A DNA stretch of 64,000 nucleotides from a virus (taxonomy: Duplodnaviria; Caudoviricetes). A program made the translations under genes and the position numbers. The DNA is taken from the IMG/VR virus record IMGVR_UViG_3300050034_000334; one strand, given 5' to 3'. The notes below the pieces were generated by a model, which worked only from the letters and a program-made list of their open reading frames with translations, had not been told where the DNA came from and ran no database searches. Positions 1,666 to 1,869 of the stretch are shown here, one piece after another; position 1 is the first letter of the stretch, and each line of letters starts with the position of its first letter.

Positions 1666-1692
1666 AAACAAAAACCACTCCCGGAGGAGTGG
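1666..1692 (-). terminator. Intrinsic terminator (attenuator) immediately upstream of tRNA-Tyr
   Basis: CCACTCC-TCCG-GGAGTGG hairpin followed by TTTTTGTTT. Confidence 0.85.
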
Positions 1693-1720
1693 CTCTTGTG
1701 AACTTGGTTTTGAGGTCGTC

Positions 1721-1813
1721 TTATATGCCTCTCCACCTTGCCACAGAGCCACTCGGCAAGCTAAGGTAATAGCTTGACAGTGACGGGGACGAAGATAGAG
1801 ACAGTAAACGCAT
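1721..1813 (-). CDS. Leu/Ser/Tyr-rich attenuator leader peptide MRLLSLSSSPSLSSYYLSLPSGSVARWRGI (30 aa)
   Basis: GAGG RBS; 16 of codons 3-19 are Leu/Ser/Tyr; contains GAGTGGCTCT, complementary to the terminator 5' arm; below the ORF-track cutoff. Confidence 0.8.
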   Translation of the reverse strand: MRLLSLSSSPSLSSYYLSLPSGSVARWRGI

Positions 1814-1840
1814 GACGAAATTCCTCACTCTTACATGATA

Positions 1841-1869
1841 CTCTACTGAGCGGAAAAGTAAAGCGGTTA
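1841..1869 (-). promoter_or_regulatory. Phage promoter TAACCG-N17-GTAGAG driving the leader and tRNA array
   Basis: Exact match to a motif repeated at least 14 times. Confidence 0.8.

Follow-up and report, generated by a model that had tools for sequence, protein, structure and literature searches.

A likely leader-peptide transcription attenuator preceding a phage array of class-II tRNA genes

Leader-peptide attenuation is a textbook mechanism. In the trpL, hisL, leuL and pheL leaders of E. coli, a promoter-proximal short ORF with its own ribosome-binding site (RBS) places regulatory codons upstream of the second of four RNA segments, which pair in the mutually exclusive combinations 1:2, 2:3 and 3:4; an intrinsic terminator with a U-tract follows, and termination is the default in the absence of translation. 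Leaders of this type sense a run of one codon and control biosynthetic enzymes. Several regulatory amino acids are mixed in the leaders of ilvGMEDA (Ile/Val/Leu) and thr (Thr/Ile), while the pheST attenuator, with its pheM leader, governs a component of the translation apparatus. T-box riboswitches likewise convert tRNA status into a choice between terminator and antiterminator upstream of translation-related genes, but they bind uncharged tRNA directly, without a ribosome or an ORF. Leader-peptide attenuators are not known to control genes other than those for amino-acid biosynthesis or aminoacyl-tRNA synthetases. No description of leader-peptide attenuation of tRNA genes was found in the full-text literature searched (most subscription journals excluded), consistent with the statement in a first-pass annotation of the present sequence that no such attenuator of a tRNA operon had been described.

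The window analysed here is a 64-kb stretch of phage DNA originating from peat metagenomes. It encodes, among other things, a large intein-like terminase/helicase fusion, a NAD-dependent ligase and an HNH endonuclease. On its minus strand, positions 1869 to 1666 carry a leader module in which a promoter, a GAGG motif, a short ORF and a terminator are followed by tRNA-Tyr and five tRNA-Leu genes. The module is likely to be a ribosome-mediated (leader-peptide) transcription attenuator gating ten class-II tRNA genes, a reading for which there is no experiment on termination, read-through or translation of the ORF; what is shown is the anatomy, its improbability by chance, a predicted fold switch, recurrence with matching tRNA sets, and coverage in RNA libraries. 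Like trpL and its relatives, the leader has a promoter-proximal ORF with an RBS, regulatory codons ahead of segment 2, four segments with the same alternative pairings, a terminator with a U-tract, and predicted termination by default. It differs from them in being phage-encoded, in controlling tRNA genes, in mixing three amino acids and nearly all of their synonymous codons in the sensor, and in the position of its stop codon, which lies 22 nt past segment 2 instead of adjoining it. The ilvGMEDA, thr and pheST operons encode proteins, whereas the product here is tRNA, and the feedback would act on decoding and not on the amino-acid pool or on tRNA charging.

A promoter scan identified sigma-70-like hexamers at 1862-1857 (TTTACT, -35-like) and 1840-1835 (TATCAT, -10-like) on the minus strand, with 9 of 12 matches over both hexamers, a spacer of 16 and a predicted transcription start at about 1829-1828. 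The Shine-Dalgarno motif GAGG (1826-1823), read from the sequence, lies 9 nt 5′ of the ATG at 1813 that opens the leader ORF, MRLLSLSSSPSLSSYYLSLPSGSVARWRGI, of 30 codons plus a TAA (1813-1721, TAA at 1723-1721). This ORF satisfies the attenuator criterion of a short, RBS-bearing 5′ ORF enriched in regulatory codons: 13 of the 14 sensor codons 3-16 (1766-1807) specify Leu, Ser or Tyr, and they sample 8 of the 10 tRNAs of the array. Two other identities for the region were discarded. An Rfam scan of 1666-1869 with E-values up to 10 returned no T-box, no other cis-regulatory element and no known RNA family, and a T-box identity was rejected on the absence of a match; a decayed tRNA within 1754-1687 was likewise rejected, the Rfam tRNA model giving no match there at E-values up to 10. 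The idea that TTTCCGCTCAGT is a repeated phage promoter was not supported either, with 6 matches in the 64-kb window against 6.7 expected.

The codon content of the ORF is exceptional within the window. Among 79,676 stop-free windows of 15 codons in the six frames of the 64 kb, the maximum number of Leu/Ser/Tyr codons, 14 of 15, falls in the leader ORF; all nine windows with at least 12 such codons lie inside it, and the best elsewhere reaches 11. The top-ranked Leu/Ser/Tyr stretch of the window is thus located directly upstream of Leu/Ser/Tyr tRNA genes. When the leader was compared with tRNA sets, 13 of 15 codons matched the set of its own array, versus 1 of 15 and 0 of 15 for two other sets. 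The ORF employs five of the six codons for Leu, all six for Ser and both for Tyr. Two rare Leu codons are among them, TTA (4% of Leu codons) and CTA (8%), and every one of the five Leu tRNAs has one cognate Leu codon in the leader. Given the codon usage of the phage itself, the joint probability of this synonymous-codon sampling is 0.013. The regulatory codons correspond to the supply furnished by the regulated genes (Tyr, five Leu and four Ser), as is expected of an attenuator.

The array begins with tRNA-Tyr (GTA, 1572-1663; ARAGORN and Rfam) and continues on the minus strand with tRNA-Leu genes bearing the anticodons GAG (1244-1330), CAG (1136-1224), TAG (878-962), CAA (779-863) and TAA (19-101); the other genes downstream of the leader are a 71-aa ORF and an HNH endonuclease gene. 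There are no tRNA-Ser genes in the window, and the first-pass annotation had predicted them (GGA, CGA, TGA and GCT) beyond its left edge. This prediction held in near-identical contigs. A 7.7-kb IMG/VR contig with an identical leader (L001) carries Ser GCT, CGA and TGA 3′ of Leu-TAA, and three further contigs (L014, L027 and L031) carry Tyr, five Leu and then Ser GCT, CGA, TGA and GGA, with opposite-strand genes beyond the last tRNA-Ser. The complete array thus consists of exactly ten class-II tRNAs (those with a long variable arm), one Tyr, five Leu and four Ser, which jointly read all 14 Leu/Ser/Tyr codons.

An intrinsic terminator, identified by sequence and folding only, without 3′-end mapping, separates the leader ORF from these genes: CCACUCC (1692-1686), a UCCG loop and GGAGUGG (1681-1675), followed by the U-tract UUUUUGUUU (1674-1666), which ends 2 nt 5′ of tRNA-Tyr. 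The 7-bp G+C-rich core of the hairpin has an energy of -12.7 kcal/mol and the extended 14-bp stem -22.4 kcal/mol. Four segments of the minus-strand transcript are involved in alternative pairings. In the minimum free energy fold, segment 1, GUCACUG (1778-1784), pairs with segment 2 and encloses a hairpin formed by CAAGCUA and UAGCUUG (1776-1757). Segment 2, GAGUGGCUCUGUG (1742-1754, codons 20-24), is the 5′ strand of the antiterminator and resembles the 3′ arm of the terminator. Segment 3, CACAAGAGCCACUCC (1686-1700), contains the terminator 5′ arm and can pair with either segment 2 or segment 4, the latter comprising the terminator 3′ arm and the U-tract. Helix energies are -17.3 (1:2), -31.1 (2:3) and -22.4 kcal/mol (3:4). 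Within the 2:3 helix, GAGUGGCUCU(GUG) (1754-1742) is complementary to (CAC)A-AGAGCCACUC (1700-1687); this antiterminator duplex has an energy of -23.0 kcal/mol, a value attained by no member of a set of 5000 dinucleotide shuffles (mean -10.7, sd 2.2) and by only 2 of 992 natural tiles of the window.

All of the sequence features listed in the first-pass annotation are present, each far beyond chance. Its claims of a GAGG RBS, a 30-codon ORF at 1813-1721, a terminator, and tRNA-Tyr with five tRNA-Leu genes held, as did those of Leu codons corresponding one-to-one with five anticodons, of the use of six Ser and both Tyr codons, and of exact complementarity between 1754-1742 and 1700-1687. The promoter, placed at 1869-1841, was confirmed with a slightly different span. 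Judged from sequence alone, the module fulfils every sequence-level criterion of a trp/his/leu-type attenuator. The regulated genes are tRNAs and not, as in the described cases, amino-acid biosynthetic enzymes or aminoacyl-tRNA synthetases, and this target represents the novel aspect of the module, with no mechanistic mismatch to leader-peptide attenuators.

Whether ribosome position could decide between the two structures was examined by folding, as the annotation had proposed. At equilibrium the full-length transcript always preferred the terminator, whatever the ribosome position; folding of this kind is non-discriminating and was set aside as a test of the switch, and control must therefore be kinetic, as in trp. 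Only a nascent-transcript model discriminates. In this model the RNA was cut just 5′ of the terminator 3′ arm, a 29-nt ribosome footprint was masked for each A-site codon, and P(antiterminator) was taken as the probability of the ten antiterminator pairs. The expected switch was seen: P(antiterminator) was 0.16 without a ribosome, 0.88-0.95 with the A site at codons 2-16, a range that holds the 13 Leu/Ser/Tyr codons, and 0.42 dropping to 0 at codons 17-28. The naked leader folds into a single extended hairpin (-45.5 kcal/mol), in which segment 2 is held and both GAGG and AUG are buried, and the terminator forms alongside it. For A-site codons 29-31 the computed fold joins segment 2 to segment 3 across the ribosome, an arrangement regarded as physically doubtful. 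A ribosome at the stop codon leaves segment 2 uncovered, and termination in that state needs either segment 1 to re-pair with segment 2 or steric hindrance. Mutual exclusion of antiterminator and terminator, with ribosome position deciding, is thus met as a prediction of ribosome-mask folding.

A mechanism can be proposed on this basis. Host RNA polymerase would initiate at about 1829, and a ribosome would load on the emerging GAGG and AUG and translate the 30-codon leader. When Leu, Ser and Tyr codons are decoded quickly, the ribosome would be at codons 17-31, covering or just past segment 2, while segment 3 is being made; segment 3 would then pair with segment 4, and transcription would terminate at the U-tract, 2 nt before tRNA-Tyr. 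A ribosome delayed at codons 3-16 would cover segment 1 and leave segment 2 free to pair with segment 3; no terminator would form, and polymerase would enter the tRNA array. Without translation, the long leader hairpin would tie up segment 2 and bury the RBS and AUG, giving termination by default. Extra tRNA for the stalled codons would relieve the stall, and the circuit would therefore feed back negatively on decoding capacity. Control of read-through by stalling in vivo is an inference, as is the view that the natural trigger is tRNA loss (e.g., through a nuclease defence) rather than amino-acid starvation.

A search for comparable modules before other phage tRNA arrays, also suggested in the annotation, was positive in the same lineage and in three other phages, with exceptions. 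In the same lineage, a stepwise walk through near-identical metagenome contigs led to a second array, which lies some 13 kb outside the window. It contains Arg-ACG, Met/Ile2-CAT, Trp, Gln-CTG, His, Asn, Lys-CTT, Arg-CCG, Met-CAT, Lys-TTT, Arg-CCT and Arg-TCT, and is preceded by a GTG-start ORF, MKQIQANSMRQHKQWQRNQHAIGGLDSGGSA (beginning MKQIQANSMRQHKQWQRNQH), which overlaps with a very short ORF on its 5′ side and has a terminator on its 3′ side. Of codons 2-20 of this leader, 17 can be read by its own array; Gln is encoded by CAG at all five of its positions, and Ile by ATA.

A distant relative, the 102-kb IMG/VR record G002 (marker protein 55% identical), has three arrays. Array B (Trp, His, four Arg, Asn, Gln, Lys, Phe and others) is preceded by TTGACA/TATTAT and then the ORF MTFRKSNTNVASKQGERQRKHNNRWF (KQGERQRKHNNRWF), with a terminator that abuts tRNA-Trp. 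Upstream of array C (Val, Ala, Cys, Asp, Gly, Glu) are a leader ORF, MNKIHTNSNAVCTEHGTVAAAAAVGDTV (AVCTEHGTVAAAAAVGD), and a terminator. Array A (four Ser, Leu) has a promoter, a long leader RNA and a terminator, and no matching ORF was found there; arrays A and B share a 5′ element of about 135 nt. A codon-matched leader is therefore present at two of three arrays. Across the two lineages leader and array co-vary, Met and Ile(ATA) codons occurring only with CAT-anticodon tRNAs, and Phe only with tRNA-Phe.

Three leader modules occur in an unrelated 104-kb phage with terminal repeats (G004): MHTLHSSYSLLSCLS upstream of Leu, Cys, Leu, Ser and Met; MKHTLTTRFTPAAAQQPRQGN upstream of Asn, Gln, Gln, Gly, Thr, His, Ala, Phe, Pro and Arg; and VVITITIEKWGRGDM upstream of Trp, Met, Lys, Lys, Arg, Glu, Glu, Arg, Arg, Asp, Val, Ile and Gly. 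Leader a1 of this phage matches its own array at 10 of 12 codons at the amino-acid level and at only 5 of 12 at the codon level. In Caulobacter phage phiCbK, gp335, annotated as a hypothetical protein, contains KAASPASLSLAPLA and is accompanied by an annotated terminator; 3′ of it lie Pro, Pro, Lys, Lys, three Leu, an unannotated Ala and two Ser. A second phiCbK ORF, QFVRQIQVVRNI, unannotated and located at 51342-51440 of NC_019405, stands with a terminator upstream of Phe, Val, Ile, Ile, Val, Gln and Gln. Terminators are annotated in phiCbK at 48120-48166, 49745-49769 and 51465-51502. The starts of the phiCbK Trp/Gly and Glu/Asp arrays gave no convincing leader. No description of the codon-matched leaders of phiCbK, G002 and G004 was found in the full-text literature searched.

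The correspondence between leaders and arrays was assessed by a permutation test that requires no choice of ORF. For 12 array starts, the best upstream window of 12 codons in any frame was scored against the tRNA set of each array, and the three failing arrays (array A of G002 and the Trp/Gly and Glu/Asp arrays of phiCbK) were kept. The total for leaders paired with their own arrays was reached by 1 of 200,000 permutations, at the amino-acid and codon levels alike. Although the leaders of different phages have no mutual sequence similarity, the phiCbK gp335 region and the G002 and G004 modules show the order found in the window: promoter, matched ORF, antiterminator strand in the 3′ third of the ORF, terminator and tRNAs. 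The strand that pairs best with the terminator 5′ arm is located, in every leader, within the 3′ third of its ORF, immediately past the matched codons, and in three leaders the distance from stop codon to terminator is 25-28 nt. Taken individually, the antiterminator of G004 leader a5 is non-significant, as is that of the second leader in the lineage of the window. Several other leaders consist of three segments, with antitermination by default, whereas that of the window has a fourth segment sequestering segment 2. The attenuator interpretation put forward in the first-pass annotation is thus supported computationally, while the step from stalling to read-through and the trigger by tRNA loss remain inferred.

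The leader stretch is present in assembled contigs from four peat/wetland metatranscriptome runs. Contigs X16 (1396-1805), X17 (1481-1829) and X18 (1337-1814, from a diverged strain), derived from three studies, all bridge the terminator into tRNA-Tyr. Depth in X16 and X17 is approximately 0 over the upstream gene (1830-2152), and the upper ends of the contigs (1805-1829) lie no more than 25 nt from the start site predicted from the -10 hexamer. One further RNA-library contig, X15, links the upstream gene and the leader. As assembled contigs, these data give no true 5′ or 3′ ends and no strand, and some carry-over of DNA remains possible; coverage this patchy speaks against uniform DNA in the RNA libraries. 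The contigs fit a transcript that starts at the predicted promoter and at least sometimes reads through into tRNA-Tyr, a conclusion resting on contigs only, without condition-dependent data.

The alternative closest to the interpretation given here is that the attenuator senses amino-acid supply or general translation speed (starvation, host shut-off), the match existing at the amino-acid level only. A stall on uncharged tRNA cannot be distinguished from a stall on missing tRNA, the two levels are inseparable in the window because the array reads all 14 Leu/Ser/Tyr codons, and leader a1 of G004 scores far better by amino acid than by codon. Against this, extra tRNA is useless if the amino acid is missing, so that the regulated genes fit a shortage of tRNA better; the Leu codons of the window, rare TTA and CTA included, correspond one-to-one with five anticodons; and codon-level matches are seen elsewhere, with Gln always CAG where the only tRNA-Gln is CTG, and ATA where there is a tRNA with a CAT anticodon. 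Amino-acid sensing is consequently considered unlikely.

More distant alternatives dispense with the ribosome as the sensor. The terminator could be switchable or leaky under some other control (a phage antitermination factor, an RNA-binding protein, or infection timing), or the terminated leader of about 160 nt could be a small RNA, with the ORF incidental or its peptide functional. Array A of G002, which lacks a matching ORF despite its promoter, long leader RNA and terminator, and the element of about 135 nt that it shares with array B, speak in favour of this, as does the ability of a terminated attenuator RNA to act in trans in other systems (rnTrpL, PMC6614838). It leaves unexplained, however, both the match between ORF and own array in four phage lineages and the invariable placement of the antiterminator strand in the 3′ third of the ORF, and Rfam finds no known RNA family at 1666-1869; control of this kind seems very unlikely. 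The hairpin might also be no more than the ordinary terminator of the upstream gene, with the tRNAs expressed independently and the Leu/Ser-rich ORF a by-product of a pyrimidine-rich hairpin strand. The 5′ strand of the leader hairpin is indeed C/U-rich, which in this frame favours Leu, Ser and Pro, and X15 joins the upstream gene to the leader. Against it, the interval separating the upstream gene from the ORF holds a promoter-like site and the boundaries of RNA contigs; the terminator is 210 nt past the stop codon of that gene and 2 nt from tRNA-Tyr; the ORF also uses AGC, AGT, UAU, UAC, UUA and UUG, beyond what C/U-only codons would supply; it is the most extreme among the 79,676 windows; and leaders rich in Lys/Gln/Arg/Asn or in Ala/Val/Gly match their own arrays elsewhere. 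This last explanation is disfavoured and considered very unlikely.

A bolder form of the leader-peptide attenuator reading is that large phages divide their tRNA repertoire into regulons, each with a codon-matched leader-peptide sensor, which would measure decoding capacity for each codon set during infection and switch on only the tRNA block in short supply, e.g., after particular host tRNAs have been lost to a host anticodon nuclease or a tRNA-depleting defence. The balance of evidence tips modestly towards this view, within which the leader of the window would be the cleanest four-segment example, controlling all class-II tRNAs. Control of tRNA genes through leader-peptide attenuation would mean that the phage reads the decoding capacity of the cell directly and corrects it with its own tRNAs. 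This would explain why the tRNA genes of large phages are sorted into blocks by amino-acid or codon family, and why odd terminators, annotated but unexplained in phiCbK, precede tRNA blocks. It also gives a testable link between phage tRNAs and tRNA-cleaving host defences, and a short, codon-programmable sensor could be used as a natural reporter of how well specific tRNAs are supplied. The design also occurs in phiCbK, which infects Caulobacter vibrioides, making it testable in a cultured system.

Comparative evidence for the leader of the window itself is limited. Exact-pattern scans of viral and metagenome contigs with the leader and with tRNA-Tyr revealed no diverged copy of the 1813-1721 leader, and therefore no covariation test could be made. 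Searches for homologues of the upstream gene gave nothing useful, either with its 80-aa version in the window or with an intact version of 147 aa, and synteny searches with neighbouring proteins retrieved relatives without a tRNA array nearby. An inverted segment at 2156-2637 has no inverted repeats at its ends. In the L015 lineage, the region 1664-2155 differs by about 1% throughout, with a recombination boundary inside tRNA-Tyr; conservation of the leader says little alone because the low divergence spans the neighbouring gene too. Only three haplotypes of the leader are known, distinguished by single synonymous changes, GGC to GGT at 1727 (codon 29) and TAT to TAC at 1769 (codon 15), the latter situated in a hairpin loop.

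The Leu tRNA genes of the window (779-1330) lie in the order GAG, CAG, TAG, CAA, whereas in the near-identical relatives L001 (5638-6189) and L014 (900-2144), and in the contigs from RNA libraries, the order is CAG, TAG, GAG, CAA. The ORFs inserted in the array also vary by strain, with an HNH endonuclease gene at 45-449 of the window as against a PD-(D/E)XK gene in L014. The tRNA array is a mosaic produced by recombination.

A further ORF, of 71 aa, is found on the minus strand between tRNA-Tyr and the first tRNA-Leu (1337-1552). It did not match any Pfam or PHROG family, and is conserved at 85-90% identity within the tRNA arrays of a distinct group of phages of lower G+C content (L020-L026), where its tRNA neighbours differ from those of the window. 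It seems to encode a small protein that moves together with tRNA arrays.

Between tRNA-Leu(CAG) and tRNA-Leu(TAG), at about 1120-1005 on the minus strand, is a tRNA-like gene in which, as inferred from the sequence, the back half appears to precede the front half. The back half carries a long variable arm, a T-arm (ACAGG-TTCGAGT-CCTGT), the acceptor 3′ strand CTCCCCG and an ACCA end, and finishes at 1051; the front half starts at 1047 with the acceptor 5′ strand CGGGGAG, followed by a D-arm of class II type. When the two halves were joined in silico, tRNAs were called by ARAGORN, the anticodon varying with the unknown junction. Rfam gave weak matches to YrlA and tmRNA at the same position.

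Upstream of the leader, a 482 bp segment (2156-2637) is in the opposite orientation to that in L001, L014, L015 and the RNA-library contigs. With the segment in the alternative orientation, the gene that precedes the leader forms an uninterrupted ORF of 147 aa; in the window this gene is shortened to 80 aa. Terminal inverted repeats were sought at this segment and none were found; the inversion may be a genuine rearrangement or else an assembly error.

The metatranscriptome contig X17 ends, in its match to the window, at 1829, and continues for 39 further letters that do not resemble the window (TTTCCGCTCAGTGAACTTCAGC...). This extension opens with 12 letters identical to minus-strand positions 1856-1845 of the promoter region, and it could represent a snap-back or an assembly artefact at the 5′ end of a transcript.

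In the Caulobacter phage phiCbK (NC_019405), ARAGORN detected an unannotated tRNA-Ala(TGC) at 50683-50753, inside the Pro-Lys-Leu-Ser array; its membership of this array explains the many Ala codons of the candidate leader gp335. The candidate leader ORF preceding the Phe-Val-Ile-Gln array (51342-51440) is also without annotation, and between its terminator and tRNA-Phe, at about 51530-51625, is a tRNA-like stretch with GACTGTAAATC.

Another tRNA-like stretch, whose variable arm is long, immediately follows tRNA-Leu(TAA) in the 102 kb relative G002 (L036 4720-4815). Its anticodon loop is apparently enlarged (CCTTATAAA), and ARAGORN did not call it as a tRNA. The same genome carries a promoter and 5′ leader of about 130 nt almost exactly twice, one copy before array A (L036 2655-2790) and one before array B (13165-13300). 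The array B copy holds a 16-codon upstream ORF (MYGENPHLKEVQGIRE), the TGA of which overlaps the ATG of the leader, and the lineage of the window has a comparable overlapping upstream ORF (MKFVKGVL) at its own second leader, which precedes a tRNA array outside the window.
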